Shown here: positions 25,213 through 44,487 of the stretch, piece by piece
Layout of the letters: the number at the start of each line of letters is the position of its first letter
Position numbering within the stretch: the first letter of the stretch is position 1
Source of the DNA: Anaerolineales bacterium
GTDB taxonomy: Bacteria; Chloroflexota; Anaerolineae; Anaerolineales; E44-bin32
DNA length: 64,000 nucleotides
Assembly (NCBI GenBank): GCA_037382465.1
Contig: JARRPX010000004.1
Coordinates: forward strand, 76,204 to 140,203
Direction of reading: 5' to 3'
Made by a program: the position numbers and the translations under genes
The notes under the pieces: generated by a model
What the model saw: only the letters and a program-made list of their open reading frames with translations
What the model was told of the DNA's origin: nothing
The model's database searches: none

Positions 25213-25914
25213 CTAGCTCGGCGTAGCGGAAGGCGTACCCGGGGCCGGAGACAGCGTTGGCGTCGGTGTGGCGATGTTGACCGGGACGAGGATGATCTGA
25301 CCGACGCCGATGTCGTTCGGGTCTTCGATGTCATTGGCTTCGGCGATCGCTTCCGCCGTGCTGTTGAACTGTGCGGCGATCGACTCAAGCGTGTCGTTCG
25401 GTTGGACGCGGTATTCGATTTTTTGTCCGGGCAGCAGATTCTCCGGCAGGGGTGTGTTCGTCGGCAAGACGTCTTCCGCGCCGGGGATGATCAAAACCTG
25501 TCCTACGAATATCGCATCCGGATCGTCGATGTTGTTCACGGCCATCAAGAGCGAGATTCCATCCAATCCGAACTGTTCGGCGATCGTCCAGAGCGAGTCC
25601 CCAAGCTCGACCGTGTAACTCAACGGGCCCGTGGGGGTCGGCGTATCCGAAGGCGGCAGGGTGAGGGTAATCGTAGGCGTGTCGGTTGCCGGCAAGGGGG
25701 TTGAGGTTTCCGTGGGTGTCGGTGTCTTGCTGGCAAGAAATCCGGGCAGCGCCGGTGGGTTATCACCCGTCAGCCACAGCACGACCATGAAGACTCCCAC
25801 AACGAGGAGCACCACCGCCATCCCCCCCAGGATGAGCGGCACCAAACGCTCTCGACGCCGCCTGTAGGCCATAATTACGTCCGCGACATCTGGTTCCGGT
25901 TCAGGCATGTCCAA
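25213..25914 (-). CDS. membrane-anchored protein with two LysM domains
   Basis: One TM helix (LVPLILGGMAVVLLVVGVFMVVLWL) is followed by a PT-rich linker. Two LysM repeats follow (YTVELGDSLWTIAEQFG...; YRVQPNDTLESIAAQFN...). Confidence 0.8.
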   Translation of the reverse strand: MDMPEPEPDVADVIMAYRRRRERLVPLILGGMAVVLLVVGVFMVVLWLTGDNPPALPGFLASKTPTPTETSTPLPATDTPTITLTLPPSDTPTPTGPLSYTVELGDSLWTIAEQFGLDGISLLMAVNNIDDPDAIFVGQVLIIPGAEDVLPTNTPLPENLLPGQKIEYRVQPNDTLESIAAQFNSTAEAIAEANDIEDPNDIGVGQIILVPVNIATPTPTLSPAPGTPSATPS

Positions 25915-28899: not shown

Positions 28900-31545
28900 A
28901 TGAAGAGAACGATTTTTTACATCACACTACTGACAGTCATGATTTCCATCGCATTCGCCGCTCTTGCCGATCCGCTTCCCGCGAGTGCCGACGACGGCAA
29001 GATCATAGTCAACACCGATGACGACAAAGAAGACGGCAGTTGCGACGATGTACATTGCTCTCTACGTGAGGCCATTGGCCAATCGAACGACACGCAAGGA
29101 AGGCAAACGATTGTCTTCGAAATGCCGGACCCCGGCAACTACTACACGATCCAACTGTGCAGTCCGCTTCCGGACATCGCCGATCCGGTTACCATAGACG
29201 GCACCTTGCCACCCGGGACGTTTGGTCCACCCAGTGTCGTGATCAAACCTTGGGATATCAACAATCTTCCCCCATGGCCATGCAATCCGCCACCCTACGG
29301 ATTCTGGGTCGGCGCTGATGACGTTATCCTACGCGGTATGAGCATGGTTGGATTCCTCAATTTCCAGGCCGAGACGTCCGGCGCGATCATCGTCGACAAC
29401 GCCTCAAACGCACTCATCGAATACAACCAACTGGGTGTGTATCCCAATGGAGTCGTAGAGGGAAACTATAATGCGATCTACCTGACAGATGAGAATCACA
29501 TCGTTCGTAACAATTTGATCTCGGGGAATTGGTATGGCATCAACAGCTTTGCCTCGGACACGACCATCCAGGGCAATTACATCGGCACGGACATCTCGGG
29601 AACGTCTACAAGCTTATTGTTAGGGAATCAAACAGGGATATTTTTGTGGTGTCCCAGCGAATCCACGACCATCGGCGGCGTGAATCCGGATGAAATGAAT
29701 CTGATCTCCGGAAATTCGATCGGTATATCCATTTGCTCGGACAGCACGATTTATGGCAATCGCATCGGAACGGATAGAACCGGCACCATGGATCTGGGAA
29801 ACTCCAACGGAATCATGATCGGTGGAGACGACAACATAATCGGCGGCCCGTTACCCGGCCAGGGCAATCTGATTTCGGGCAACGGATTGGCACTCAGCTT
29901 CGCCAGCGGCGCAGATGACAACATCATCCAGGGCAACAACATTGGAGCAGATATCAGCGGAAACCAGGCACTTGTGAATGCGGCCGGTAACTGGCATGGA
30001 ATGATCGTCTTTGGCGATTCCAACACGATTGGCGGGACCAATCCCGGAGAGGGCAACCGGATTGCCTTTATCACGGGTGAAGGGATTGACTTCGATCACG
30101 GTGCCACCTCCAACCACGTCGTAGGGAATACGATCTTTTCTAACGTAACCGGCGTGCTTGTTGAATCCGATCAGTGGTATACGGCGTTGATGAACACGCT
30201 GTCTCAGAACAGCATCTACGATAACATGGGTTTGGGAATCGACCTCGAACCCGCAGGGGTATCACTGAATGACGTCGGCGATACAGACAGCGGCGGCAAC
30301 ACGGTGTTGAACTTCCCGGTTTTCAGCGCAGGTTTCAACAGCGTAAGCGGAACTGCGTGCCCGGGCTGCATCGTCGAGCTTTATATAAGCGACAACGACT
30401 CCTCCGGTTATGGCGAGGGCAGCACGTTTATCAGCCAAACCGTCGCCGAAGATGACGGCGACTTCACAATCCCGGTGATGTTGGCGTATTCACACTGCAC
30501 CCGCCTCACGGCAACGGCGACGGATATCCAGGGAAACACCTCCGAGTTTTCCAGGAACGTTGAGTTCGGACTGTGTATATCCCACCATCCCTGGAACCTC
30601 TTCATACCTATGCTGTCCCTTGGGTTGAGTCTGCTGGCCGGCGTGCTGTTCGGACGTTCACCCAAAATCAATGGCCGCGCCGCCCTTGCCGTCGCCGGAA
30701 TCGTCGGCCTCGGACTGGCGGGCGGCTTGTTCCTGATCCTGCGAAGTCCCACCAAAGCCCCCGCAGCGCAGCCGGCAGAAATGGATCCATGGGCGGGTTT
30801 GCCATCCTGCAGCGATTACATCGAACCGGATAGCCTGTCCCCGGACGAAGAAGTGTTTGCGCTGGAGGACGATCCCGTGTTGTCCTGGTCGCCGCTCGAA
30901 GACATGCTCCCCGATTCGCTGCGCTGGACGGTCGAGCTTTCCCGGCATCCCGATCCGGCGCAGAGTGAGACAACGAGCGAAGAGCATCTGGCGTTTTCGG
31001 CCTTCGGCCTGCAGCCGGACCCGGGCGATATCTACAAATGGCGTCTCAGCGGAGAGATGGATGGATCCGCGGATGGCAGCTGGCGATTTTTCTGTGCGCC
31101 CACCGATTGGCTGCCCTTTCAGTTCGAGCGCCTCATCGTCCCTGCGGCGCCCTCCGACACCCCCGAACCGTCGCCCACGCCCACGCAAACCCCGACACCC
31201 ACGCCGGACGTATGTGTCTACACGGCGATCCGAAACGCCAACTGCCGTTCGAGCGACCATTCGGAATCGGAGCAGATAAATATTCTCATGCAGGGAGAAA
31301 GCGCGGCGCTGCTGGCGCTCAACCCGGAATTCACGCATGGACAGTTCGAATTGGATCAGGAGTCGTGCTGGATCTGGCTCGGTTTGCTGGACGGTCCCGA
31401 AAATCCTTTCGGCACGTGCGACGTGCCGATCATCGATCCCGCACCGGCTTGCACGCCGGAGCTGGATGAGCAAGCCTGTATACTCGCCGGCGGGCAGATG
31501 AGTGAAACGCGCACGACGGCGCCCTTCTGCGTCTGCCCGGATTGA
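28900..31545 (+). CDS. paralog 1: CSLREA-motif right-handed beta-helix surface protein with internal TM hairpin and Cys-rich C-terminal module
   Basis: The ATG follows TAGGAGA and the signal peptide is MKRTIFYITLLTVMISIAFAALA. SCDDVHCSLREAI is present (CSLREA at 29056-29073), followed by many beta-helix turns (ISGN.., GNxIG). Further features are LGIDLEPAGVSLNDVGDTDSGGNTVLNFP, the TM hairpin at 30592-30741, a PT linker and the tail CVYTAIRNANCR...CWIWLGLLDGP...CVCPD. Confidence 0.8.
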   Translation: MKRTIFYITLLTVMISIAFAALADPLPASADDGKIIVNTDDDKEDGSCDDVHCSLREAIGQSNDTQGRQTIVFEMPDPGNYYTIQLCSPLPDIADPVTIDGTLPPGTFGPPSVVIKPWDINNLPPWPCNPPPYGFWVGADDVILRGMSMVGFLNFQAETSGAIIVDNASNALIEYNQLGVYPNGVVEGNYNAIYLTDENHIVRNNLISGNWYGINSFASDTTIQGNYIGTDISGTSTSLLLGNQTGIFLWCPSESTTIGGVNPDEMNLISGNSIGISICSDSTIYGNRIGTDRTGTMDLGNSNGIMIGGDDNIIGGPLPGQGNLISGNGLALSFASGADDNIIQGNNIGADISGNQALVNAAGNWHGMIVFGDSNTIGGTNPGEGNRIAFITGEGIDFDHGATSNHVVGNTIFSNVTGVLVESDQWYTALMNTLSQNSIYDNMGLGIDLEPAGVSLNDVGDTDSGGNTVLNFPVFSAGFNSVSGTACPGCIVELYISDNDSSGYGEGSTFISQTVAEDDGDFTIPVMLAYSHCTRLTATATDIQGNTSEFSRNVEFGLCISHHPWNLFIPMLSLGLSLLAGVLFGRSPKINGRAALAVAGIVGLGLAGGLFLILRSPTKAPAAQPAEMDPWAGLPSCSDYIEPDSLSPDEEVFALEDDPVLSWSPLEDMLPDSLRWTVELSRHPDPAQSETTSEEHLAFSAFGLQPDPGDIYKWRLSGEMDGSADGSWRFFCAPTDWLPFQFERLIVPAAPSDTPEPSPTPTQTPTPTPDVCVYTAIRNANCRSSDHSESEQINILMQGESAALLALNPEFTHGQFELDQESCWIWLGLLDGPENPFGTCDVPIIDPAPACTPELDEQACILAGGQMSETRTTAPFCVCPD

Positions 31546-31631
31546 GCTGCGCAGACGCATGCAGCGACGTATTTCGAGACGGGCATTTCCTCACCGGGGA
31601 GGTGCTCGACAGCAAGTCAGAAGGTTAGGAG

Positions 31632-34382
31632 ATGAAAATGAAGAACAAGCGGATCTTGTACCTTACCCTCGCTTTAACGCTGGCGGTCTTCGCCCTCGTC
31701 ATGCAGCCCACGCATTCCGGCTACGCCGGAGGGGGCATCATCGAGGTCAACACGGTAGACGACAACGATGACGGTGTCTGCAATGCGACACACTGCTCGC
31801 TGCGCGAAGCGATCGACTGGGCCAACACCATGCCGGGTACGCCTACGATCACCTTCGACATCCCCGGCGCCGGCCCGCACGTCATCAATCTCTGCCACGC
31901 GCTGCCGCAGCTGACGAGTTCGGGCACGACCATCGACGGCACGACGGAACCGAGTTATTCCGGAACGCCCGTCGTCGTACTGCAGCCGGCGTTCCTTTCC
32001 GATACGCCGCCGCCGCTCACCCACGTCCCGCCGTGTATTCCACCTTCGGTCGGCCTGTGGATCGAAACCGACGACATCACCGTGCGAGGCTTGAGCATCG
32101 TCGGTTTTCGCCAGACCTGGCCGGCGATCGCCGCCGGGATCGTGGTCGCTAACGGCAGCAACAATCTTATCGACGCAAACTACATCGGTCTGGACGCCGG
32201 CGGCTCACCAGACGGCAACCGCGATGGCATTCTCCTCGGCGCAGCCGGCCAGGAGATTCGGCACAACACCATTTCCGGCAACGACAACGGTATCCACGTC
32301 CGCGCCGGCGAACAAAAAATATACGCCAACCGCATCGGCACCGATTTCTCCGGCAGCACGAGCGGAACCGGCATGGGCAACTACCGCGGCATTTATATCG
32401 AAGCTTCAGCGGGTGCCAACATCATCGGCTCCTCCGATCCTACCCACAAGAACGTGATCTCCGGCAACACCGCCGTCGGGATAGAGGTGGAATCCGACGA
32501 CAACATCATCCAGGGCAACCACATCGGCTGCAATTTGATCGGCGATACCGCCCTGGGCCAGCAGGAAGGTGTGAGCCTCGGAGGGAACAGCAATCTCCTC
32601 GGCGGTAGTAACGCCGGTGAGGGGAATCTGATCTCCGGAAACGACATCGACGGCGTCATCATCGGCTGGAATTCCAGCGGCCACCAAATCCTGGGCAACA
32701 TCATCGGAGCCGACGCCAGCGGTACCGCATCGCTGGGAAATTTCGTCGGTATATTTACAATCGGCGGAGACAACATCGTTATCGGAAATAATTCCGCCCT
32801 GGGGGGCAATCTCATCGCATTCAACGGCCACCACGGGATCATGCTTCTGGCTGATGCCCATACCTATCACATCGCTGGCAACACGATCACGCAGAACGGC
32901 GGTGACGGGATAATATTGGGAACGTTCTCAGCCAATCCAGCCACTCCCCAGCAGATTACAATCAACCGCAACAGCATCTTCGATAACGGCGAATTGGGCG
33001 TGGATTTATTTCCAGATGGCGTTACGCCTAACGACCCGGGTGACGCCGATACAGGTGCCAACACGCTGCTCAATTTCCCCGAGCTCAGCCAGGTGACGGC
33101 CACCGATGCGCAGGGGACCGCCTGCACCGGCTGCCGCGTGGAAGCCTTCATCGCCGACGGCGATCCCTCCGGCTACGGCGAAGGCATGACCTTCGTTGGG
33201 GAAGCGTTCACCGACTCCTCTGGTAACTTCAGCGTTCCGCTGGATGTGAACCTGGTCTCCACCTGCGACCTGATTACGACGCGAGCGACGGATGGGTCTG
33301 GGAACAGCTCCGAATTCTCGGAAAACATGCGCGTTTCACCCTGCTTCGTAATGCGCCGCCCGTGGCTGTTCGCACCACCCCTCCTGCTGGGCTTGCTGGG
33401 TCTGCTCGGAGGCCGCCGCGCAGGCCGTGGTAAACCCGGGCTGGCTTCCGCCGCCGGCGGCGCCGCCATCGGCGCCGGGATCGGCGGTGGACTGGTTGTC
33501 CTGGCGATCGTGCTGCCCGTTGTGCACATCGAAAAACCACAGGAAGACGCAGGCTTGCCGGCCGTGCAGATGCCCTGCGATCGCTTCCTCGATCCTGCCG
33601 GGCTCTCGCCCGCAGATGGCTCGATCTTTGAGATCGATGATAACGACTGGGATTTCACCTGGAGTCCATCTGCCGAGATGCCCGATGGAGAGTTCCGCTG
33701 GCTCGTCGAGCTACTCGGACCGGATGGCAGCATGCAGCAATTGTCTACAATCGGTAACTCACTGCCCTTCCTTTCCTTTGATACTGAAATCTCACAAGGC
33801 GCCGTATTCTCCTGGCGCCTCAGCGCCGAGCAAGCAATCCCCGGAACGGACCGCTGGGAGCCCTTCTGCCGGCAGATGGGCTGGCGTTCCTTCCAATTCG
33901 GCGAACGCCCACCGCTCAACGCCCCGCCCTGGACGCCCGACGAATGGAGCCAGCCTGAAGATTCTCCGACCCCGACTTCGTCGCCCACAGCGACCTCCAC
34001 GCCGACTCCCGAAGAAATGACCTGCGTATACGAGGCGCTGCAGAACGCGAACTGCCGCGCCAGCGACTACTCGGAAGCGGCCCAAATCTCGATCCTCATG
34101 CAGGGAGAGACGGCCGAACTGTTGGCTTTGAATCCCGAGTTCACCCACGGCCAGTTCAATCTCGGCCAGGGTGCGTGCTGGATCTGGCTCGGCTTGCTGG
34201 ACGGGCCGGAAGATCCGTTCGCCAACTGCGGCGTACCGGTCCTCGATCCCCCACCACCGCCGACAGACACGCCCACGCCGCCCGCCTGCACGCCGGATTT
34301 AAACGAAGAAATGTGTATAAAAAGCGGCGGAACCTGGCCGGAAGGTGAAACGACAAAACCCCGTTGCGTCTGCCCGGATTAA
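31632..34382 (+). CDS. paralog 2 of the CSLREA/beta-helix, TM hairpin, Cys-rich module family
   Basis: It has a signal peptide and VCNATHCSLREAI (TGC at 31794). Other features are LGVDLFPDGVTPNDPGDADTGANTLLNFP and the TM hairpin at about 33361-33525 with loop GGRRAGRGKPG. The tail is CVYEALQNANCR...CWIWLGLLDGP...CVCPD. Confidence 0.8.
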   Translation: MKMKNKRILYLTLALTLAVFALVMQPTHSGYAGGGIIEVNTVDDNDDGVCNATHCSLREAIDWANTMPGTPTITFDIPGAGPHVINLCHALPQLTSSGTTIDGTTEPSYSGTPVVVLQPAFLSDTPPPLTHVPPCIPPSVGLWIETDDITVRGLSIVGFRQTWPAIAAGIVVANGSNNLIDANYIGLDAGGSPDGNRDGILLGAAGQEIRHNTISGNDNGIHVRAGEQKIYANRIGTDFSGSTSGTGMGNYRGIYIEASAGANIIGSSDPTHKNVISGNTAVGIEVESDDNIIQGNHIGCNLIGDTALGQQEGVSLGGNSNLLGGSNAGEGNLISGNDIDGVIIGWNSSGHQILGNIIGADASGTASLGNFVGIFTIGGDNIVIGNNSALGGNLIAFNGHHGIMLLADAHTYHIAGNTITQNGGDGIILGTFSANPATPQQITINRNSIFDNGELGVDLFPDGVTPNDPGDADTGANTLLNFPELSQVTATDAQGTACTGCRVEAFIADGDPSGYGEGMTFVGEAFTDSSGNFSVPLDVNLVSTCDLITTRATDGSGNSSEFSENMRVSPCFVMRRPWLFAPPLLLGLLGLLGGRRAGRGKPGLASAAGGAAIGAGIGGGLVVLAIVLPVVHIEKPQEDAGLPAVQMPCDRFLDPAGLSPADGSIFEIDDNDWDFTWSPSAEMPDGEFRWLVELLGPDGSMQQLSTIGNSLPFLSFDTEISQGAVFSWRLSAEQAIPGTDRWEPFCRQMGWRSFQFGERPPLNAPPWTPDEWSQPEDSPTPTSSPTATSTPTPEEMTCVYEALQNANCRASDYSEAAQISILMQGETAELLALNPEFTHGQFNLGQGACWIWLGLLDGPEDPFANCGVPVLDPPPPPTDTPTPPACTPDLNEEMCIKSGGTWPEGETTKPRCVCPD

Positions 34383-34442
34383 GAATCGAACATCAAGGAT
34401 GAGATTCGGTTAGAGATGATGGTTCGATTGTGGAGGAAGATC

Positions 34443-37310
34443 ATGAAATCACGACGCTCGACCATGTTGGTGGGATATGCGGTATGTTTGGCTCTAGTTA
34501 TTGGTTTCGTTACCCCGCTGCCGTCTCATGCAGGCGGCGGGGTGTGGATCGTCAACACGGTCGACGACCTCGACGACGGCGTCTGTGACAGCACACACTG
34601 TTCCTTGCGCGAAGCAATCAATCAGGTCAATGCCAGTCCAGGCGTTCAGTATATTTACTTCGATATCCCTGGACCGGGCCCACACGAGATCCAACTCTGC
34701 TCGATGCTGCCGGCGTTGACCGACGACGGAACGTTGATCGACGGCACCTCGGAGCCCGATTATGGGGGTACCGTACCGGTGGTCGTGATCAAGCCGGGGA
34801 TATTCAATGTGTCCGCCTATCCGGGCTGCTTTCCTCCACCAGTCGGGATCTGGATCGCCGCCAGCGACATCACCGTGACCGGCCTGAGCATCATCGGTTT
34901 TAGAAGTCCTTCCGCCTCCGTCGCCGGGGGAATCGTGACCCACATGGGCTCGAACGTCACGATCGAGCACAATTACATCGGCCTCGATCCTTCCGGAACG
35001 CCCGTCGGAAATCGAGACGGTATTTTGATGGGCTCCGAGGCGTCGCAGATCTATTCCAACCGCATCTCGGGCAACGTCAACGGCATTCACGTCTTCCGCA
35101 GCGATCACGTCATCCGTTTGAACTACATCGGAACCGATCCCACGGGCACGTTCACCAGCCCCACGCTGAAAAATTCCGTCGGCATCCTGGTGGATAATCC
35201 CTCCAGCAACGTGCAAATCGGAGGTCCAAATCCCGCCTGGATGAACCTCATTTCGGGCAACGATACCGGTGTTCAAGTCGTAACGGACGATAACTCCGTG
35301 ACCAACAACCGCATCGGCTCGGACACCAGCGGTACGCTCGGATTGGGAAACGACACCGGTATTTGGGTGACCGGCAGTGGAAACCTGATCGAGGGCAATC
35401 AGGTCAGCGACGGCCAGATCGGTGTGCTGTTGGCCGGCAGCAGCAATCAGATCTCGGGCAACTTCATCGGCACGGATTCCAGCGGCGACCTGGCGTTAGG
35501 CAACGACACCGGCGTTCACATCACCGGCAGCGATAACGTCATCGGCGGTGAGATTCCGATCATGCTCGTACCGGGCAGCACGGCTGGTAACATCATCTCC
35601 GGCAATGACACGGGCATCTTCCTCGGCCCGAATGCGCAGAATAACTACATCAAAGGCAACAAGATCGGCGCAGGCAACAGTCCGGATTCGAGTCTGCCCA
35701 ACACCACGGGCATCCTGCTCGATGGCGCCAACAACAACACGATCGGAGGCATCTATCTACCCATGGAAGCCAACTGGGTGATGCACAATATCCAGGACGG
35801 CATCCAGTTCGTCACCACCGCCAGCGATAACCTGGTTCAAAACAACTACATCGCCTGGAACGAACGGGGCATCACCGCCGGCGCTACGACCGGAACGTCG
35901 ATCCAAAACACCTTTCACTACAATAACATCTACTTTAACGATCAACTCGGTATCGACCTCTTCCCCTGGGGCGTGACCCCCAACGACCCGGGTGACGCAG
36001 ACAGCGGCGCCAATAACCTGCAAAATTTCCCCGTGATCAGTTCGGCTACGACTGCCACGGTTCAGGGAACATCCTGTCTGGGTTGCACGGTGGAAATTTT
36101 CGAAAGCGAAGAGGATCCCTCCGGATACGGAGAGGGCATATCGCCTATCGGCGAGGGGTTAACCGACACTGCCGGTAATTTCAGCATCAGTGTCGATCCG
36201 CTCTCTACCGCAGGTGTCTGTGATTACGTTACGGCCACCGCCACCGATTCGAACGGCAATACCTCCGAGTTTGCCCAGAACTTCCTTATCGGACCTTGCT
36301 TCACGTTCTCGCCGCACCTTTTACTCTTCCTGGGTGTGGTCTTCTTGGCCGGTGGTGCGGCCGCCGGTGGTAGTATCGGGCGCGGCCGCGGCAAGAGACC
36401 CGGCCTGGGGACCGCTGCTGGCGCAGCGCTGGGCGGATTGATCGGCGCCGGGCTGCTCCTGGCTACCTCCTTCATTCCGATCTTTCGCTTTCCGCCAGAA
36501 GAAGAACACGCGGTCTCCGAAGGCCTGACGGCACTTGTCCCCTCCTGCAATGCCTACCTCGATCCGCAGGCATTCGTCCCGCAAGATGGCGCAATCGTGC
36601 TCGACGAGAACTTCGATTTCGCGTGGGCCTGGTTGAATGAACCGTCGAACGGTGATTTCCGCTGGATCCTGGAATTGAATGGTCCCGACGATTCGGGTCA
36701 GCAAACAACGGAGAACTTAACGCTGCCTTTCACTGCGTTTGGTCTCGCTTTCGATGATGGGGATCGATTCTCCTGGCGCTTGAGCGGCGAACGGTTCGAC
36801 GACGCTTCTGCTGAATGGGAGGCTTTCTGCACGCCCTCCGCCTGGCTGACGTTCCAAATCGGATTGTCACCACTGCTGGCGCCGCCGTGGACACCGGATA
36901 CCCCGGAGGGACAACCCCCGACGCCCACCAGCACGCCCGAGTCTCCTGCGGGAGTCTGTCTGTACACGGCGGTACGCAACAGCAACTGCCGCGCCAGCGA
37001 CTATCCGGAGTCGCTGCAGATCGATATCCTCATGCAGGGGGAATCGGCTGAACTCCTGGCCCTGAATCCCGAGTTCACCCACGGTAAGTTCGAACTCGAT
37101 CACGGGCAGTGCTGGATCTGGCTCGGACTGCTGGAAGGTCCTGAAAATCCGTACGGCACCTGTGGCGTGCCGGTCATCGATCCAGCGCCGCCGCCGACCG
37201 CAACGCCGCCGGTCTGCACTCCGGATCTGGGCCAGGAGGACTGCGAAGCGAGCGGAGGCACCTGGTCCGGCGGCGTGACGGGCGCTGCGGGATGTGTGTG
37301 CCCGGAGTAA
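34443..37310 (+). CDS. paralog 3 of the CSLREA/beta-helix, TM hairpin, Cys-rich module family
   Basis: ATG 34443 follows GGAGGA. VCDSTHCSLREAI and LGIDLFPWGVTPNDPGDADSGANNLQNFP are present. The TM hairpin lies at about 36303-36490 with loop GRGRGKRPG. The tail is CLYTAVRNSNCR...CWIWLGLLEGP...CVCPE. Confidence 0.8.
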   Translation: MKSRRSTMLVGYAVCLALVIGFVTPLPSHAGGGVWIVNTVDDLDDGVCDSTHCSLREAINQVNASPGVQYIYFDIPGPGPHEIQLCSMLPALTDDGTLIDGTSEPDYGGTVPVVVIKPGIFNVSAYPGCFPPPVGIWIAASDITVTGLSIIGFRSPSASVAGGIVTHMGSNVTIEHNYIGLDPSGTPVGNRDGILMGSEASQIYSNRISGNVNGIHVFRSDHVIRLNYIGTDPTGTFTSPTLKNSVGILVDNPSSNVQIGGPNPAWMNLISGNDTGVQVVTDDNSVTNNRIGSDTSGTLGLGNDTGIWVTGSGNLIEGNQVSDGQIGVLLAGSSNQISGNFIGTDSSGDLALGNDTGVHITGSDNVIGGEIPIMLVPGSTAGNIISGNDTGIFLGPNAQNNYIKGNKIGAGNSPDSSLPNTTGILLDGANNNTIGGIYLPMEANWVMHNIQDGIQFVTTASDNLVQNNYIAWNERGITAGATTGTSIQNTFHYNNIYFNDQLGIDLFPWGVTPNDPGDADSGANNLQNFPVISSATTATVQGTSCLGCTVEIFESEEDPSGYGEGISPIGEGLTDTAGNFSISVDPLSTAGVCDYVTATATDSNGNTSEFAQNFLIGPCFTFSPHLLLFLGVVFLAGGAAAGGSIGRGRGKRPGLGTAAGAALGGLIGAGLLLATSFIPIFRFPPEEEHAVSEGLTALVPSCNAYLDPQAFVPQDGAIVLDENFDFAWAWLNEPSNGDFRWILELNGPDDSGQQTTENLTLPFTAFGLAFDDGDRFSWRLSGERFDDASAEWEAFCTPSAWLTFQIGLSPLLAPPWTPDTPEGQPPTPTSTPESPAGVCLYTAVRNSNCRASDYPESLQIDILMQGESAELLALNPEFTHGKFELDHGQCWIWLGLLEGPENPYGTCGVPVIDPAPPPTATPPVCTPDLGQEDCEASGGTWSGGVTGAAGCVCPE

Positions 37311-37383
37311 AACCGATTCGAGAATACTACGCCGTGAAGTTGATCGAAAATCGCAGCCAGAGGTTGATGTAAGGAGCACTTTG

Positions 37384-39984
37384 ATGAGAACTCGCAAACA
37401 CATTTCCCAGGCCTGGCTGACCCTGGGCCTGCTGGCGATGATGACCCTCGCTTTTCCATTCCCAGCAGAAGCCAGCACCTTCGTCGTCAACACGGTCGAC
37501 GATCTCGACGACGGGACCTGCGACGCCGATCACTGTTCCCTGCGCGAGGCGATCAACGCCGCCAACGCCAACCCCGGCGCGGACACGATCGCCTTCGACA
37601 TTCCCGGCGCCGGACCGCACGTGATCGAACTGTGCAGTCTGCTGCCCAAACTCACCGACGGCGGGACGACGATCGACGGCACGACGGAACCGGGTTATGC
37701 GGGGACGCCTGTCATCACGCTGACGCCATCTGCAAATCCGAGTTGTGTAAGACCGCACATCGGCCTCTGGATCCAATCCGACGGGAACGTGATCCGCGGG
37801 CTGCACACCATCGACTTCATGCACCCCACCCTGCAGCACGAAACCGCCATCTACATCGAGCGCGGCGGCGGAAACTTGATCGAGTTGAATCACATCGGCT
37901 ACCAACCCACCTGTTCGCTCTTCAACACCCAATACGGCGTTCGCATCGATACCGACGCCGGCAACCAGCGCATTCTCAAAAACGTATTCAATTGCAACGG
38001 AACGGCAATCGACATCTGGGCCGGCAGCCACCTGATCCGGGACAATCTCATCGGCGTCGATCCTTCCGGCACTACGGCCATCCTCAACGGCCTGGGTATC
38101 TACGTTTACGAAACCGCCCACGGGTCAATCATCCAGGATAACGTGGTTTCGGGCAACATCAGCGCCATGGCGGTCTATTCGGACGACAACAAGATATTGG
38201 GCAACCGCGTCGGAACCGATTGGTCGACGAACATCGCCATCCCCAATCAGGGCGGCGTCCAGGTGAACGGTGATCACAACCGCATCGGCGGCACGAACCC
38301 CGGCGAAGCGAACATCATCGCCGCCAACACCAGCATCGGCCTCGATCTGTACTGCGGCGCGGAATACAACCAGGTGTACGGCAACATCATCGGCACCAAT
38401 CTCGCCGGAACTCTCATGATGGGCAACCAGTATGGTGTCACCATCATGGGGAACACGAACATCATCGGGGGAAACGGCCCGGGAGAAGCAAACCGCATCA
38501 TCTTCAGCCAGGAAGCCGGGCTCAGCCTGTACGCATTGGCGCACAAAAACCGCGTCATCGGAAACGAGATCGCCTACGGCCGCACGCAGGGCATTCTGGG
38601 TACGAGTTCGATGGGCTTTCCCGAATCCAACACCTTCAGCCGTAACAGCATCCACCACAATCGTGCCCTGGGAATCGATCTGGAACCCGCGGGTGTGACC
38701 CTGAACGACCCTGGGGACACGGACGTCGGCCCCAACACGCTGCTCAACTTCCCCGAGCTGCAGTCCGCCAATGTGAACACGGCGGAAGGAGACGCCTGCC
38801 CGGGCTGTACCGTGGAAATCTTCATCGCCGATTCGGGTCAAGGTGCGTTCGGCGAAGGCATGACGTATGTGGGAAGCGGCAACGCCGATTCGAGTGGTCA
38901 TTTCACGATACCGCTGAGCGGGGTCGGTTTCTGCGATCCGCTCACCGCCACCGCAACAGACGGCGCGGCCAACACCTCCGAATTCGCCAAGAACATCCTG
39001 GCCAGCTGTCTCACGCTCGTCTTCCCCTGGCCCGACCTCGTCTTACTGGCGTTCATTCTTACCGGCGCCCTGGGCAATGGACGTCGCAGCCGGGGCAAAT
39101 CGCCCGGCCGATTTGCCGCCGCCGGCGGTGCTGCTGGCGCAGTGTTCGGCATCGCCCTGCTGACCCTGGGCAGTACGCTTCCCAACGTGCACCTGGAACT
39201 GCTCCCTCCCAAAGAGGAATCGAAGATTGAACCACTATGCAGCGAGCTGCTTCTACCGGATGGGTACGCGCCGCCGGCCGGAACCGTTTTCCAAACCAGC
39301 GAGGACCCGCTGCTTTCCTGGACGCCAGGCCCCGGCGTCGCCGACGGGATCGTCTGGCAGGTAGAGTTAAGCGCACCGGACGGCTCGGGTGTGAATCAAA
39401 CGACGCAGGAGACAAGCATCGCCTTCAGCAGCTTCGCGCTCCCCGCTCAACCGGGGTTTTACCGCTGGCGTATCACCGCCGGAGAGGGCAACGCCCCAGG
39501 AATACTGGGGAAAGCGTTATGTTCACCGACTTCGTGGATGCCGTTTTCCCTCGAAGGGCCGCAGCGTGAGGAAACGCCTTCATCGACGCCGACCTCGACC
39601 CCCACGCCAACTCCCACAACGGAGTTATCCGCGTGTGTCTTCATCGCGCTGCAAAATGCCAACTGCCGGGAGAGCGACTACGTCGAATCGGACCAGATTG
39701 CCATTCTCATGCAGGGCGAGAGCGCCGGGTTGATCGCCTTGAATCCCGAATTTACGCACGGAGAGTTCGAGGTCGATCAGCATCAATGCTGGATCTGGCT
39801 CGGGTTGCTGGACGGCCCGGATAACCCGTACGGCACGTGCGGCGTTCCGGTCGTCGATCCGCCTCCGCCGCCGACGGCAACGCCGCCGGTCTGCACCCCG
39901 GATCTCGGCCAGGAAGACTGCGAAGCAAGCGGGGGCACTTGGTCCGGCGGCGTGACGGGCGCTGCGGCATGCATATGCCCGTAA
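37384..39984 (+). CDS. paralog 4 of the CSLREA/beta-helix, TM hairpin, Cys-rich module family
   Basis: ATG 37384 follows AAGGAG. TCDADHCSLREAI and LGIDLEPAGVTLNDPGDTDVGPNTLLNFP are present. The TM hairpin lies at about 39019-39180 with loop GNGRRSRGKSPG. The tail is CVFIALQNANCR...CWIWLGLLDGP...CICP. Confidence 0.8.
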   Translation: MRTRKHISQAWLTLGLLAMMTLAFPFPAEASTFVVNTVDDLDDGTCDADHCSLREAINAANANPGADTIAFDIPGAGPHVIELCSLLPKLTDGGTTIDGTTEPGYAGTPVITLTPSANPSCVRPHIGLWIQSDGNVIRGLHTIDFMHPTLQHETAIYIERGGGNLIELNHIGYQPTCSLFNTQYGVRIDTDAGNQRILKNVFNCNGTAIDIWAGSHLIRDNLIGVDPSGTTAILNGLGIYVYETAHGSIIQDNVVSGNISAMAVYSDDNKILGNRVGTDWSTNIAIPNQGGVQVNGDHNRIGGTNPGEANIIAANTSIGLDLYCGAEYNQVYGNIIGTNLAGTLMMGNQYGVTIMGNTNIIGGNGPGEANRIIFSQEAGLSLYALAHKNRVIGNEIAYGRTQGILGTSSMGFPESNTFSRNSIHHNRALGIDLEPAGVTLNDPGDTDVGPNTLLNFPELQSANVNTAEGDACPGCTVEIFIADSGQGAFGEGMTYVGSGNADSSGHFTIPLSGVGFCDPLTATATDGAANTSEFAKNILASCLTLVFPWPDLVLLAFILTGALGNGRRSRGKSPGRFAAAGGAAGAVFGIALLTLGSTLPNVHLELLPPKEESKIEPLCSELLLPDGYAPPAGTVFQTSEDPLLSWTPGPGVADGIVWQVELSAPDGSGVNQTTQETSIAFSSFALPAQPGFYRWRITAGEGNAPGILGKALCSPTSWMPFSLEGPQREETPSSTPTSTPTPTPTTELSACVFIALQNANCRESDYVESDQIAILMQGESAGLIALNPEFTHGEFEVDQHQCWIWLGLLDGPDNPYGTCGVPVVDPPPPPTATPPVCTPDLGQEDCEASGGTWSGGVTGAAACICP

Positions 39985-40153: not shown

Positions 40154-41299
40154 ATGAGCCTCTGGATTCGAACAAAAACAACAACTCTCGTCCTGATCCT
40201 TGCAGCAAGCCTGATCCTTTCGGCATGTCATTTCCCCGGTATGGGCGCCACCCCGGATCTGTTCGCCACGTCCGCAGCGCAAACCGTATCCGCCCGGCTG
40301 ACGCAGCCGGTAGAACCAGGTATAGACGGGACGACAGAGCCCGAGCCGCCCGTGATCGCCACGACTGAAGCGCCACCGACGGAAGAACCGCCTACCCCAA
40401 CGATTACGCTCACGCCTACGATCACGCAGACCACCATCCCCTGCGATCGCGCCGGCTTCGTTTCGGACGTCACCATCCCGGACGGGGAAGAACTGCAACC
40501 GAACGAGAGCTTCACCAAAACCTGGCGGTTGAAAAATAACGGCTCGTGTACCTGGACCTCCAGCTACGCGCTCATCTTCGACAGCGGCGATTCGATGAGC
40601 GGACCTGCATCCCAACAACTCACCAGTGGAACCGTGGCGCCTGGCGCCACGATGGACGTCTCCGTCGATCTGACCGCGCCAGGTTCACCGGGAACGTACA
40701 AGGGTTACTGGAAACTGCGCAACGGATCGGGTGTGAATTTCGGCATCGGAACGAGCGGCACGAATCCCTTCTGGGTCGAAATCGAGGTCGTTCCCAACAC
40801 CACCACGGTCACCCTGCCGATGAAAGAAATGGAAAGCGGACAGGTGGAATCCACCGGCTCAACCGGATTTGGAAGGTATGTGGGTGACAGCCACACGAAT
40901 ACATCCACACAAGCATTCGTCAGCTTCGATATCAGTGCGATACCGTCGGACGCCATCATCACCAAGGTTACGACGAAGGTCAGCAGCTACAATAAAACCG
41001 GAGATCCCTTTGGTGACCTGGGCGCATTATTCATCTTCAAGGATGATTACGGCAGCCTGGACGCAAGCGACTACGTCGGAAGTGTTCCGGGGAGCGGCCG
41101 GCTGATGTCCTGGTCTTCGACATCGAGCCTGGGAACCGAAACCGCCGACAACGATATGGTCAATGCACTGCAGAGCAAAGTGGGCAGCAGTCGCTTTAAA
41201 GTGCGATTCCAATTCGCCGATGACACAAATGGTGATCACGGCGCAGACTATCTGGAACTGGTCACGATTGTGATCAAGGTAACTTACTACACACCATAA
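40154..41299 (+). CDS. lipoprotein with NBR1-type Ig-like (FW-like) domain and a beta-rich C-terminal domain (paralog A)
   Basis: Lipobox is LILSAC, followed by a PT/E linker. The NBR1-Ig pattern is CDRAGFVSDVTIPDGEELQPNESFTKTWRLKNNGSCTWTSSYALIFDSGD...GTYKGYWKLRNGSGVNFG. The C-terminus reads ...LFIFKDDYGSLDASD...KVTYYTP. Confidence 0.8.
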   Translation: MSLWIRTKTTTLVLILAASLILSACHFPGMGATPDLFATSAAQTVSARLTQPVEPGIDGTTEPEPPVIATTEAPPTEEPPTPTITLTPTITQTTIPCDRAGFVSDVTIPDGEELQPNESFTKTWRLKNNGSCTWTSSYALIFDSGDSMSGPASQQLTSGTVAPGATMDVSVDLTAPGSPGTYKGYWKLRNGSGVNFGIGTSGTNPFWVEIEVVPNTTTVTLPMKEMESGQVESTGSTGFGRYVGDSHTNTSTQAFVSFDISAIPSDAIITKVTTKVSSYNKTGDPFGDLGALFIFKDDYGSLDASDYVGSVPGSGRLMSWSSTSSLGTETADNDMVNALQSKVGSSRFKVRFQFADDTNGDHGADYLELVTIVIKVTYYTP

Positions 41300-41429: not shown

Positions 41430-41513
41430 CCTGATACTGATTGCCGGCTTTGAATGATCATATTCTTAGCGGGTACACGGAGAAGAAGATATCAAAACGA
41501 AGGAGACACCAAG

Positions 41514-42659
41514 ATGAGCCTTCTGACTCGGATAAAAACTTCAACACTCGTCTTTATTCTTGCGGCCGGTTTGATTCTTTCGGCCTGTAATTTCCCCGGC
41601 ATGGGCGCTACCCCGGATCTGTTCGCCACATCGGCCGCACAGACGGTGTCCGCCCGTCTCACCCAACCGGTGGAACCCGGCAGCGTGGAAACGACAGAAC
41701 CTCCGCCGCCTGTGATCGCCACGACCGAAGCGCCGCCGACGGAGGAGCCCCCCACGCCGACCAAAACGCTGACACCCACGGTCACGAATACCACCATCCC
41801 CTGCGACCGCGCCGCCTTCGTTACGGACGTCACCGTACCCGACGGGGAGGAATTTGAACCGAACGAGAACTTCACCAAGACCTGGCGCCTGAAGAACGAT
41901 GGCTCCTGCACCTGGACCTCCAGCTATGCACTCATTTTCGACAGCGGTGATTCGATGGGAGGGCCCGCTTCCAAACAGCTCACCAGTGGAACCGTGGCGC
42001 CTGGTGCGACCATGGACGTCTCCGTCGATCTGACCGCGCCGAGCTCTCCGGGCACCTACAAAGGCTACTGGAAATTGCGCAACGGATCGGGAGTGAACTT
42101 CGGCATCGGCGCAGGAGGCACAAATCCCTTCTGGGTCGAAATCAAGGTCGTTCCCAACACGACAACGAAAACCGTTCCCCTCGTCGTCGGCGAAAGTGGG
42201 CAGGTGACCAAAGGCGGCTTCGTATTCGGAAACAAAATCGCCGGAGACAACGTAAGCAACGATTCCTCCCAGGCCTTCCTGAGTTTCAATATCACCGGAA
42301 TCCCGGCGGACGCCGTCATCACGGAAGTCGTGATCGACCTCGGCGATTTCACCGTGAGCGGAACGCCGTTCTCGGCGCTCGGGGCGCTCTTCATCTTCAA
42401 GGACGATTACGGCAGCCTGGACGCCTCCGATTTCGTCAGCAGCACACCCTCTTCCGGCCGGCTTATTTCCTGGAGCTCAAACTCGAGCCTGGGAAATGCC
42501 GTCTCGGATGCCGACATGGTCAATGCCCTCCAGACCAAGGTGGGGTCGAGTCGTTTCAAGCTGCGTCTGCAGTTCAACAAACAGACCGATAATGACAATG
42601 GAAACGATTACCTGACTTTCAACACGGTAATCCTCAAAGTCACCTACTACACGCCCTGA
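41514..42659 (+). CDS. lipoprotein with NBR1-type Ig-like domain and beta-rich C-terminal domain (paralog B)
   Basis: The ATG at 41514 follows GAAGGAGACACCAAG, the same leader as paralog A. The signal/lipobox is MSLLTRIKTSTLVFILAAGLILSAC. The N-terminal half is about 90% identical to paralog A by eye and the C-terminal half about 60%. Confidence 0.8.
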   Translation: MSLLTRIKTSTLVFILAAGLILSACNFPGMGATPDLFATSAAQTVSARLTQPVEPGSVETTEPPPPVIATTEAPPTEEPPTPTKTLTPTVTNTTIPCDRAAFVTDVTVPDGEEFEPNENFTKTWRLKNDGSCTWTSSYALIFDSGDSMGGPASKQLTSGTVAPGATMDVSVDLTAPSSPGTYKGYWKLRNGSGVNFGIGAGGTNPFWVEIKVVPNTTTKTVPLVVGESGQVTKGGFVFGNKIAGDNVSNDSSQAFLSFNITGIPADAVITEVVIDLGDFTVSGTPFSALGALFIFKDDYGSLDASDFVSSTPSSGRLISWSSNSSLGNAVSDADMVNALQTKVGSSRFKLRLQFNKQTDNDNGNDYLTFNTVILKVTYYTP

Positions 42660-42810: not shown

Positions 42811-44487
42811 ATGGTTGCGAATGTACTCGTTGTTGAAGAGATGGAAGAATTCGGGTCTTTGATCCGCAATGCGCTGGAAGAAACCGGGCGGTATCAGGTG
42901 TCGCTGGCGATGAACGCAGACGAGGCGATCGAACTCGGAGATCGGGAGAATATCCACTTGCTGATTATCGACTTCGATCTCTCCGAAGCCGATGCGCCGG
43001 CCTGTATTCAACGCATCCAATCCACCAATCCGGACATGGCCATCATCGCCATTCCGCCCAACAACGACCCGCACGATCCTGCATTGTCGAATCTTCCAAT
43101 CCGCGGCATGCTGACGAAGCCCTTTTACCTTCCTGAACTCAACGAAATCGTCTCCGCAGCGATTGATCTGCCGACGCAGCCTGTGGCAACGGAACAGATC
43201 CAAGAATCCCTCCCACAGGAAGCCCCCTTCATCGAGGTCATGGACACGCCGGCACCCTGGGCGGACGACGCGGATCGAACCACGCAGTACCTCGCCAGGA
43301 TATGTGACGAAACGTCGGCCGAAGCGGTGATCCTCTTGCACCACGGCCGGCAATGGGCACAAACGGGTGGGATAACTGCGGATCAAGCCCAGGGACTCGC
43401 AGAAAAGATTGCTGAAATCGGAGTCGGCTCGGGCGCCCGCGGAGCCATTACCACTCTGACTCGCCTGCCGGGCACACAACGGGACTGCATCCTCTATGCC
43501 AACGGTTTGATGCCGAATTGGATTTTGGCGCTGATCTATCCCTCCGGCACGTCCTTCGGGATCATCCGCCGCCAGGCCAGACACGCCGCAGATAGACTCA
43601 AATACACCGATCTGTCCGGCCACGAGGAAGAACTGCCTCCTATAAAGGTATCCGCACCCGATACCGCACCGATTTCCACTCGAGCCGAAGAAGACATATC
43701 GTTCGATGAAATCTTCGATGCGGAACCGGAGACTCAAGAGATGCCGTTTTTCGAAGATCTCGACCTGCCTTCCATAAAGAAATCCGCACCCGATACCGCA
43801 CCAGTTTCCGCTCGAGACGAAGAAGAGACATCGTTCGACGAAATCTTCGATGCGGAACCGGAGGCCCAAGAGATGCCGTTTTTCGACGATCTCGACCTGC
43901 CCCCTCCGGAACCCGACGAAGCACCCGCAGAAATCGAAGAGCACCGGATTGAAGAAGCAGACACCGTCGCAGCGATCCCTGGGGATTGGGTGCCCGACAA
44001 ACCCAAACCCGAATCCCACCTGCCCTTTCTCGACGAGGACGCCTTCCCGGATTCGGACTCCACCCCGGATGCACAGGAACCAATCCCGCTGCCCGACGCG
44101 GAGTACTACCTTCCCGTAACTGCGGTGCTTGTACCCCGATTCCCGGAGCACCGCCTGACGGGCGCTCTTGCGGAAAATCTGCAGCAATGGGTGATTCGTC
44201 TCTGCCTGGCGTGGGATTGGCGTGCGGATGAAGTGTCGATCGAACCCGATTATCTCTGTCTGACGATGAGCATTTCCCAGGAGACTGCGCCATCGAATGC
44301 GGTATTCCGGCTTCGCGACGATCTTTCACAGCGAATACTCAGCGCGTTTCCGGAATTTGTGGACGACCTGCCCTCTCGACGATTTTGGGCTCGCAGCTAC
44401 CTGCTGATCACCGGTGGATCACCGCCGACGGAACGGCTGCATGCCTTCGTCGAAGCCACCCGCAAGGCCCAGGGCATCGAAATCTGA
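42811..44487 (+). CDS. multidomain protein: receiver (REC), Roadblock/LC7-like, 2 x 44-aa acidic repeats, catalytically dead IS200/IS605 TnpA-like (Y1/HUH fold) domain
   Basis: The REC domain reads VLVVEEMEE...LLIIDFDL...LTKPF. The Roadblock-like pattern is TTQYLARICDETSAEAVILLHHGRQW...NWILALIYPSGTSFGIIRRQARHAADRL. The C-terminal 44104-44487 is collinear with TnpA_IS200 (VLVPRFPEHRLTG / EPDYLCLT / SQRILSAFPEF / FWARSYLLITGG / AFVEATRKAQ). Confidence 0.8.
   Translation: MVANVLVVEEMEEFGSLIRNALEETGRYQVSLAMNADEAIELGDRENIHLLIIDFDLSEADAPACIQRIQSTNPDMAIIAIPPNNDPHDPALSNLPIRGMLTKPFYLPELNEIVSAAIDLPTQPVATEQIQESLPQEAPFIEVMDTPAPWADDADRTTQYLARICDETSAEAVILLHHGRQWAQTGGITADQAQGLAEKIAEIGVGSGARGAITTLTRLPGTQRDCILYANGLMPNWILALIYPSGTSFGIIRRQARHAADRLKYTDLSGHEEELPPIKVSAPDTAPISTRAEEDISFDEIFDAEPETQEMPFFEDLDLPSIKKSAPDTAPVSARDEEETSFDEIFDAEPEAQEMPFFDDLDLPPPEPDEAPAEIEEHRIEEADTVAAIPGDWVPDKPKPESHLPFLDEDAFPDSDSTPDAQEPIPLPDAEYYLPVTAVLVPRFPEHRLTGALAENLQQWVIRLCLAWDWRADEVSIEPDYLCLTMSISQETAPSNAVFRLRDDLSQRILSAFPEFVDDLPSRRFWARSYLLITGGSPPTERLHAFVEATRKAQGIEI
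43633..43896 (+). repeat. 2 x 132-bp in-frame tandem repeat inside the REC/TnpA-like gene
   Basis: Unit 1 (43633-43764) encodes LPPIKVSAPDTAPISTRAEEDISFDEIFDAEPETQEMPFFEDLD. Unit 2 (43765-43896) encodes LPSIKKSAPDTAPVSARDEEETSFDEIFDAEPEAQEMPFFDDLD. A third unit begins (CTGCCCCCTCC) but diverges. Confidence 0.9.

Follow-up and report, generated by a model that had tools for sequence, protein, structure and literature searches.

A tandem array of putative hairpin-anchored beta-helix surface proteins with an SH3-like C-terminal module in an Anaerolineales genome

Four tandem paralogous genes and their beta-helix ectodomain

We analysed a 64,000-nucleotide (nt) stretch of the genome of an Anaerolineales bacterium (contig JARRPX010000004.1, assembly GCA_037382465.1), referred to here as the window, which carries four tandem genes (g1 to g4) for predicted cell-surface proteins. 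Positions are counted from the first letter of the window. The four products, whose lengths are given in amino acids (aa), share one order of parts, which includes an immunoglobulin-like (Ig-like) domain and a transmembrane (TM) hairpin:

28900..31545, + strand: g1, 881 aa; signal peptide (residues 1-30), CSLREA cap, beta-helix (residues ~34-450), Ig-like domain (residues 474-556), TM hairpin, FN3-like domain, Pro/Thr linker, SH3-like barrel and Cys tail
31632..34382, + strand: g2, 916 aa, architecture as in g1
34443..37310, + strand: g3, 955 aa, architecture as in g1, with ~47 extra residues (about two turns) in the beta-helix
37384..39984, + strand: g4, 866 aa, architecture as in g1

The spacing between consecutive genes is 86, 60 and 73 nt, and a purine run resembling a Shine-Dalgarno (SD) sequence precedes every gene. 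The open reading frame (ORF) of g3 is open from 34416, with GGAGGA lying 7-12 nt 5' of the ATG at 34443, and that of g4 is open from a GTG at 37294, with AAGGAG lying 8-13 nt 5' of the ATG at 37384. Each of g2, g3 and g4 could be aligned with g1 from end to end at 41-45% identity. The ORFs, their spacing, the purine runs and the alignment all agree with an original prediction, made from the DNA letters alone, of four co-directional paralogs with an SD of their own and a common order of parts, and every motif listed in that prediction was found in the alignment of the four proteins.

Assignment of the N-terminal part to the CSLREA family was equally clear. The CSLREA_Nterm model (TIGR04214) scored 28.7, 37.3, 34.2 and 43.7 bits against g1 to g4, respectively, all above its curated cut-off of 25 bits, with the matches lying within residues 35-91 of the translated ORFs, just after the signal peptide; the CSLREA and beta-helix membership originally proposed is supported. 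The beta-helix itself was not recognised by direct family searches, since a Pfam scan of g1 to g4 gave no beta-helix family at E <= 0.1 and the NCBIfam models stayed below their curated thresholds (NosD_copper_fam, 24.8 bits against a cut-off of 300; para_beta_helix repeat, 17.7 against 19.45). Homologs do carry precomputed matches to PF13229 (Beta_helix) or PF05048 (NosD). The full-length AlphaFold2 (AF2) model of g1 had a mean predicted local distance difference test score (pLDDT) of 85.5 and placed regular short strands at residues 34-450 with pLDDT >90. This predicted solenoid, the beta-helix structures retrieved by Foldseek (PDB 8wm1 and phage tailspikes) and a ladder of invariant Asn and Gly positions spaced by ~20-23 residues together identify the fold.

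Between the beta-helix and the Ig-like domain lies an acidic loop, NDxGDxDxGxNxLxNFP, at g1 residues 453-470 (30256-30309) and at the equivalent positions of g2 to g4. It is the sole low-confidence segment inside the modelled ectodomain (pLDDT ~42) and its sequence looks like a Ca2+-binding loop. The Ig-like domain that follows closes with TATATD..GNTSEFS.

The nearest solved structure to the ectodomain was 8wm1, deposited as a 3-dehydroshikimate dehydratase, both by Foldseek (E 4e-16) and by a profile hmmsearch (E 2.8e-16) that covered cap, helix and Ig-like domain (g1 residues 34-556, 28999-30567). The two share a signal-like N-terminus, the cap (read in 8wm1 as SLRWAIEQANANPG), the beta-helix and a C-terminal Ig domain, which in 8wm1 contains '...TDRFGATSELS'; 8wm1 differs in its length of 484 aa, in an identity of 18% and in having no hairpin, FN3 or SH3 part. 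The next Foldseek matches were the phage tailspike glycanases CBA120 TSP2 and Dettilon. A literature search on 8WM1, and on 3-dehydroshikimate dehydratase with beta-helix or Gluconobacter, found no publication, and in a search on 'CSLREA' the motif name appeared only incidentally, the family being without a characterised function. When a conserved catalytic site was sought in the beta-helix of 65 homologs, nothing beyond the Asn, Gly and Ser of the ladder was invariant in the helix body; the conserved charged residues sit in the cap (D41, D42, D44, D45, H52, R56 and E57) and in the Ig domain. This pattern gives no sign of a family-wide active site and would remain compatible with paralog-specific sites.

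The TM hairpin and the second ectodomain

Apart from the signal-like N-terminal segment, hydropathy revealed two internal hydrophobic segments in the proteins, joined by an R/K-rich loop of 6-10 aa. The hairpins, delimited by hydropathy and charge-run analysis and for g1 also by the AF2 model, are:

30565..30741, + strand: g1 TM hairpin; TM1 residues 556-585, loop RSPKINGR, TM2 residues 594-614
33360..33530, + strand: g2 TM hairpin; TM1 residues 577-594, loop RRAGRGK, TM2 residues 602-633
36273..36485, + strand: g3 TM hairpin; TM1 residues 611-646, loop RGRGKR, TM2 residues 653-681
39007..39195, + strand: g4 TM hairpin; TM1 residues ~542-566, loop RRSRGKSPGR, TM2 residues 577-604

TM1 of g2 fell under the threshold of the 19-residue hydropathy window and was detected as an uncharged run at residues 577-594. 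In the full-length model of g1, AF2 placed helices at residues 564-585 and 592-615. Over 79 homologs the median loop comprises 8 aa, and the loops contain on average 3.5 K/R against 0.13 D/E, with a net charge of at least +2 in 75 of the 79, and the 15-residue flanks on both sides of the hairpin are net acidic (0.8-1.1 K/R against 2.4-2.9 D/E). The number of Cys residues after the hairpin is even in 75/79. Two helices, a short basic loop and non-basic flanks are the features of an Nout-Cout hairpin, and the C-terminal module also occurs on lipoproteins and secreted proteins without TM segments, which argues that it is extracytoplasmic. A helical hairpin with its basic loop in the cytoplasm and both large parts outside the cell, as first proposed, is therefore well supported by four independent lines, namely the charge bias, the AF2 helices, the presence of the module on proteins without TM segments and the even Cys count, the last of which also bears out the suggestion that the eight C-terminal Cys residues could form disulfides.

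LepB of E. coli and similar Nout-Cout hairpins are the classic models of the positive-inside rule. The hairpins of g1 to g4 resemble that of LepB in having two TM helices, a short, strongly basic cytoplasmic loop and an exported C-terminal domain, and differ in that the N-terminal side is an ectodomain of 530-600 aa with its own cleavable signal peptide and in that both TM helices are rich in glycine zippers. TM1 and TM2 are both rich in Gly, and among 96 TM2 segments 93 contain GxxxG and 53 contain GxxxGxxxG. In the window, the glycine zipper of TM2 is encoded at:

30679-30741, + strand: TM2 of g1
33435-33530, + strand: TM2 of g2
36399-36485, + strand: TM2 of g3
39112-39195, + strand: TM2 of g4

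The zipper hints at tight packing of the hairpin or at oligomerisation. At the end of TM2, a recurrent [LST]-P-x-[VIF] followed by acidic residues was found in 73/96 homologs.

The region after the hairpin, which the original prediction had not recognised, was divided as follows:

30790..31209, + strand: g1 FN3-like sandwich between two conserved Cys, and Pro/Thr linker (AF2 pLDDT >90; Foldseek FN3 match, probability 1.0)
33558..34019, + strand: g2 FN3-like sandwich and Pro/Thr linker (the modelled copy; AF2 and Foldseek)
36528..36953, + strand: g3 FN3-like sandwich and Pro/Thr linker (alignment)
39220..39630, + strand: g4 FN3-like sandwich and Pro/Thr linker (alignment)
31210..31542, + strand: g1 SH3b-like barrel with four Cys and four-Cys tail, ending CVCPD (Pfam of relatives, Foldseek, profile searches, AF2 and hhalign)
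34020..34379, + strand: g2 SH3b-like barrel and four-Cys tail (AF2 and Foldseek)
36954..37307, + strand: g3 SH3b-like barrel and four-Cys tail (alignment)
39631..39981, + strand: g4 SH3b-like barrel and four-Cys tail (alignment)

The AF2 model of the 274 aa that follow the hairpin in g2 (pLDDT 82) consists of a beta-sandwich at residues 1-115 (pLDDT >90), a disordered Pro/Thr linker, a barrel of five to six strands and a tail with two short helices. Foldseek matched the sandwich to FN3 domains of cytokine receptors in the PDB (EpoR, IL-7R and others) with probability 1.0 but with an E-value of only ~2e-3 and TMt 0.3-0.5, and the domain has no Pfam match. Two further conserved Cys bracket it, and a conserved disulfide between its first and last strands would set it apart from the receptor domains.

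The barrel was matched by Foldseek to the SH3 domain of ABL (TMt 0.76). Direct annotation of the C-terminal region with Pfam and NCBIfam gave no family; the connection to bacterial SH3 domains came from relatives. Pfam SH3_3 (PF08239) matches two of the 19 members of the module alignment (best E 5e-4), and the sole sequence match of the module in the PDB is also an SH3 domain (E 0.34). An exhaustive HMMER search with a profile of the module returned 1734 representatives at E <= 1e-3, 244 at <= 1e-10 and 38 at <= 1e-30, and retrieved tandem SH3_3 arrays such as P0021, which scores E 2.2e-45 with the module profile and E 2.5e-105 with SH3_3 in Pfam. The intermediates P0077 and P0143 match SH3_3 at the position of the module, where they and other distant hairpin homologs (P0101 among them) have a more canonical SH3b sequence, NCR.GP..Y....L..G..A.V.GRN.EGTWWWI....HCWVW. 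Taken together, the sequence and model evidence resolves the post-hairpin region into an FN3-like sandwich, a Pro/Thr linker and a predicted divergent SH3b (SH3_3-type) barrel with a four-Cys tail.

SH3b and GW modules serve as non-covalent cell-wall anchors of Gram-positive surface proteins. Like these bacterial SH3 domains (SH3_3/SH3b, and GW of Listeria InlB and Ami), the module of g1 to g4 is a small C-terminal barrel of five to six strands on predicted surface proteins; it keeps the register N-x-R ... G ... N ... [GC]-W, and the SH3_3 arrays that its profile retrieves also match GW. It differs in adding four Cys to the barrel and a tail of ~35 aa that ends in CxCP and holds four more, and in reading ALNPEFTHG where G-R-x-x-x-x-W is usual. 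The eight Cys of the last ~110 aa and the two of the preceding domain are invariant among g1 to g4. C2 (in NCR) and C3 (in CW) are invariant among relatives, and P0016, P0017 and P0077 retain these two but lack both the first and the fourth Cys (C1 and C4), which implies that the barrel is probably stapled by two disulfides, C1-C4 and C2-C3.

Conservation is unevenly distributed over the paralogs, whose identity reaches 73% in the SH3-like core against 33% in the beta-helix and 31% in the FN3-like domain. The last 360 nt are only 66-77% identical as DNA, so that the conservation of the protein in this part mostly reflects purifying selection. The very end of g3 and g4 departs from this, the last ~120 nt (37190-37310 and 39864-39984) being 89% identical against ~60% in the other paralog pairs and the encoded tails sharing the identical stretch PPPPTATPPVCTPDLGQEDCEASGGTWSGGVTGAA, which indicates that local gene conversion has probably acted on these two 3' ends.

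Homologs, spread of the module and age of the array

We searched with the N-terminal 583 aa of g2 and obtained 2183 proteins at E <= 1e-10, the best 112 of which were classified. Over the queried 583 aa g2 is 100% identical to P0167, a public protein of 916 aa named 'CSLREA domain-containing protein' by JGI; public records give its relatives this name too. About 65 of the best 112 combine signal peptide, CSLREA cap, two TM helices and C-terminal module. The hairpin was recognised in 96 sequences. In these, in the ~65 proteins just mentioned and in independent assemblies from NCBI, JGI, ENA and Logan, every relative with the hairpin has an uninterrupted ORF. A misassembly or a gene normally split at the hairpin, which the original prediction had named as a possible artefact, is thereby ruled out: no relative examined is split there, and the genes are real. 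A first, word-indexed search, which scored 8000 candidates, had returned at least 17 proteins and missed P0167, and the extreme rarity that this suggested for the post-hairpin region is ruled out by the 1734 HMMER representatives and the ~65 full-length relatives.

The family shares with other CSLREA proteins (TIGR04214, with a PF13229/PF05048 helix) the DDxDDGxCxxxHCSLREAI cap, the Asn-ladder beta-helix and the Ig-like domain ending TATATD..GNTSEFS. Most distant members differ from g1 to g4 in what comes after. Many stop directly after '...TATATD..GNTSEFS.C', two of the best 112 have tails of the type IX secretion system (T9SS), and a few end in a short hydrophobic tail of the form '...(V)YLPLVLR/K' (for example P0241, P0256 and P0262), possibly a C-terminal sorting signal of Chloroflexota that has no name as yet. 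Among proteins that do have the hairpin, P0228, P0233, P0236, P0239 and P0245 continue with a different small C-terminal domain, whereas the FN3 domain is missing from P0143 and replaced by Cys-rich repeats in P0034. With the parts after the Ig domain variable or absent in relatives, the hairpin and its second ectodomain are best read from these sequences as an anchor, specific to this lineage, that was added to a CSLREA/beta-helix/Ig protein secreted in its ancestral form.

The module also occurs without the hairpin. Many lipoproteins and secreted proteins that, apart from the signal, lack TM segments terminate in the SH3-like barrel and tail; they include proteins with PMP repeats or a choice-of-anchor-like beta-helix (P0026, P0031, P0032, P0052, P0056, P0064, P0080 and P0081), the hairpin-less CSLRDA protein P0024 and the FN3-like lipoproteins P0013 and P0027. 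The eight-Cys module is thus not tied to the hairpin architecture. P0011, a 170-aa protein from a Logan assembly, has a signal peptide and CSLREA motif in frame with the SH3-like module, joined at '...CSLREAINKAN|CRSSDY...'; it reflects an internal deletion, or else a chimera formed in assembly at the short shared microhomology 'N-x-A-N-C'.

The peptide patterns ALNPEFTH and CWIWLGLL, searched over 185,579 species genomes, pointed to six loci, all in Anaerolineales metagenome-assembled genomes (MAGs) that carry the same arrays. By tblastn the positional orthologs correspond one to one and are 61-94% (g1), 81-94% (g2), 76-88% (g3) and 70-90% (g4) identical, whereas the paralogs are only ~38-44% identical to each other. 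The paralogy of g1 to g4, with such orthologs in related MAGs, is far beyond chance, and the duplications are older than the divergence of these MAGs. One MAG has no g3, and the closest relative, DAOUEE01 (Anaerolineales isolate N4_180), is ~94% identical for g1 and g2. All named sources of homologs are Anaerolineales or Anaerolineae, and the hairpin-type family appears to be confined to Anaerolineae. Other genomes likewise carry beta-helix genes in tandem, two to five at a time, with five at locus L013. In three unrelated contexts (L007, L014 and L015), SdrD_B-domain proteins are encoded within a few kb of hairpin-type CSLREA genes.

Proposed function, alternatives and genomic neighbourhood

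We consider the array to be best explained as an old tandem family of hairpin-anchored cell-surface proteins with an appended anchor and SH3-like docking, a reading that the sequences and models make reasonably probable. Each protein would be exported by its cleavable Sec signal peptide, so that the CSLREA-capped right-handed beta-helix and the Ig-like domain reach the cell exterior. TM1 would then halt transfer, the R/K-rich loop of 6-10 residues would remain in the cytoplasm, and TM2 would restart export of the FN3-like domain, the Pro/Thr linker and the SH3b-type barrel with its tail, giving a two-ectodomain Nout-Cout membrane protein. The pairing of a conserved docking module with diverged ectodomains suggests that all paralogs may attach to one common envelope component, which by analogy with SH3b and GW could be peptidoglycan, a secondary wall polymer or a protein layer, with the diverged beta-helices supplying different binding or enzymatic specificities at the cell surface. 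Binding to the wall or to a polymer is proposed here from the fold, the C-terminal position and the conservation of the module.

Several points weigh against this explanation. An SH3 fold alone is no proof of wall binding, and the hairpin already fixes the protein, so a wall anchor is not obviously needed. The modules of the window do not match SH3_3 directly, that of g2 finding no Pfam family even at E <= 10, and although hhalign placed the eight-Cys subfamily in register with SH3_3 repeats (E 5e-4) the probability was only 32%; the SH3 homology thus depends on the intermediates and the predicted fold. The disulfide pairing comes from co-variation, not from coordinates, and the topology from hydropathy, charge bias, the AF2 helices and domain context. 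Finally, the solved structure closest to the ectodomain, 8wm1, is deposited as an enzyme, which leaves a role in structure or adhesion alone less than certain.

That last point leads to the alternative that g1 to g4 are membrane-tethered extracytoplasmic enzymes, in which the beta-helix would be catalytic (a lyase, a dehydratase or a glycan-processing enzyme) with paralog-specific substrates and the FN3 and SH3 parts would be accessory domains binding the substrate or the wall. The match to 8wm1 is the best of the ectodomain in both structure and sequence and is followed by tailspike glycanases, the beta-helices have diverged against a conserved anchor, and arrays of two to five such genes occur elsewhere, all of which such enzymes would fit. 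The identity to 8wm1 is low, however, and the restriction of helix-body invariants to the ladder, with the charged invariants in the cap or the Ig domain, speaks against a single active site shared by the family; we regard this enzyme reading as unlikely overall. We also considered two proteins in one frame, in which TM1 with the basic cluster would sort or anchor the first at its C-terminus and TM2 would serve as signal anchor of the next, so that cleavage at the hairpin would yield a released or wall-linked beta-helix protein and a membrane-anchored FN3-SH3 protein; alternatively, the ORFs could be fusions that arose as artefacts. In its favour, TM1 with the basic cluster is built much like a sortase- or exosortase-type C-terminal signal and the basic cluster with TM2 much like an N-terminal signal anchor, and distant relatives that stop after the Ig domain fit two units joined in evolution. 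Yet every hairpin relative is one uninterrupted ORF, which makes the joined frame real, and the residues after TM2, [LST]-P-x-[VIF]-x-x-E, are unlike the AXA site of signal peptidase. A sortase-like signal was rejected: no conserved sorting motif precedes TM1, the segment is internal, being followed by TM2 and a further 250-280 residues, and a scan of the 24 largest window ORFs detected neither a sortase nor an exosortase. None of g1 to g4 carries a C-terminal signal of this type, and processing or fusion at the hairpin is highly improbable.

A third possibility involves the two genes that follow the array:

40154..41299, + strand: NBR1-Ig lipoprotein 1, with lipobox LSAC, Pro/Thr linker, N_BRCA1_IG domain and a C-terminal domain of ~170 aa; candidate partner
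41454..42659, + strand: NBR1-Ig lipoprotein 2, a paralog of lipoprotein 1 with the same parts; likely start at ATG 41511

According to this possibility, the array and the two lipoproteins would form one dedicated envelope complex in which the FN3-SH3 part binds the lipoproteins and not the wall. Two NBR1-Ig genes lie 3' of the array in all close relatives, and one lies 3' of the lone homolog P0204 (35-38% identical to g1, g2 and g4), whose neighbourhood is otherwise wholly different. Against this, no NBR1-Ig gene adjoins P0223, P0200, P0260, P0249, P0185 or P0175, so that the linkage is found in only two of eight independent genomic contexts, namely the window's own clade and that of P0204, and the SH3-like module is also present on many unrelated proteins. 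The dedicated system that the original prediction had envisaged for the array and the lipoprotein pair is therefore possible but weakly supported, and we judge binding of the module to the lipoproteins quite improbable.

The window as a whole is ordinary chromosomal DNA, with a GC content of ~57% and no break in composition. Its other genes include those for UvrA, a MacB/HlyD ABC exporter, QueG, a LysM protein, an esterase, MiaB, PolA, a TPR protein, Der, ComEC and an HtrA-like protease. Between 28300 and 42900, predicted promoters and terminators were no more numerous than in shuffled controls and so were uninformative on operon structure. The LysM-repeat protein (25213-25914, - strand), the esterase and MiaB are encoded upstream of the array, a position kept in locus L012; this conserved placement may be plain synteny or may reflect another wall-associated neighbour. 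Downstream, at 42811-44487 on the + strand, a single protein of 558 aa combines a response-regulator receiver domain with an IS200-like Y1 transposase domain. A gene with both domains (570 aa) is also found 3' of the NBR1-Ig pair in L012, and L005 and L006 have ORFs of 514 aa at the same place, known by position alone. Kept in place in this way, the receiver-Y1 gene looks like a conserved, possibly domesticated gene and not a mobile element.

All the building blocks of g1 to g4 are known folds, their function is putative and the family lies within one bacterial order or class, which limits the significance of the array; what is undescribed is the combination, and the known parts do not amount to a new kind of system. 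The topology is nevertheless unusual, with an ectodomain of ~550 aa exported by a signal peptide, a Gly-zipper hairpin and then a second ectodomain that carries this module. Should the annotation of 8wm1 hold, the wider CSLREA family would include enzymes.

In the current view, Chloroflexota are monoderm and have an envelope of several layers, the protein layers among them being as yet unidentified (PMC13319060). It is conceivable, if rather improbable, that the hairpin with its FN3/SH3-like ectodomain belongs to an Anaerolineae-specific way of building the envelope, the Cys-stapled module being a general, hitherto unnamed C-terminal anchor of the class and g1 to g4 components of one of the protein layers seen by cryo-electron tomography. 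The module, shared by hairpin proteins and many lipoproteins, would in that case fix the beta-helix proteins to the wall or to one of the unidentified protein layers of these monoderm, multilayered filaments. The SH3-like barrel with its four-Cys tail marks many predicted surface proteins of Anaerolineae and could become a new domain model and a candidate wall- or layer-binding tag. The envelopes of Chloroflexota are poorly understood, and the family offers a conserved and abundant class of candidate envelope proteins.

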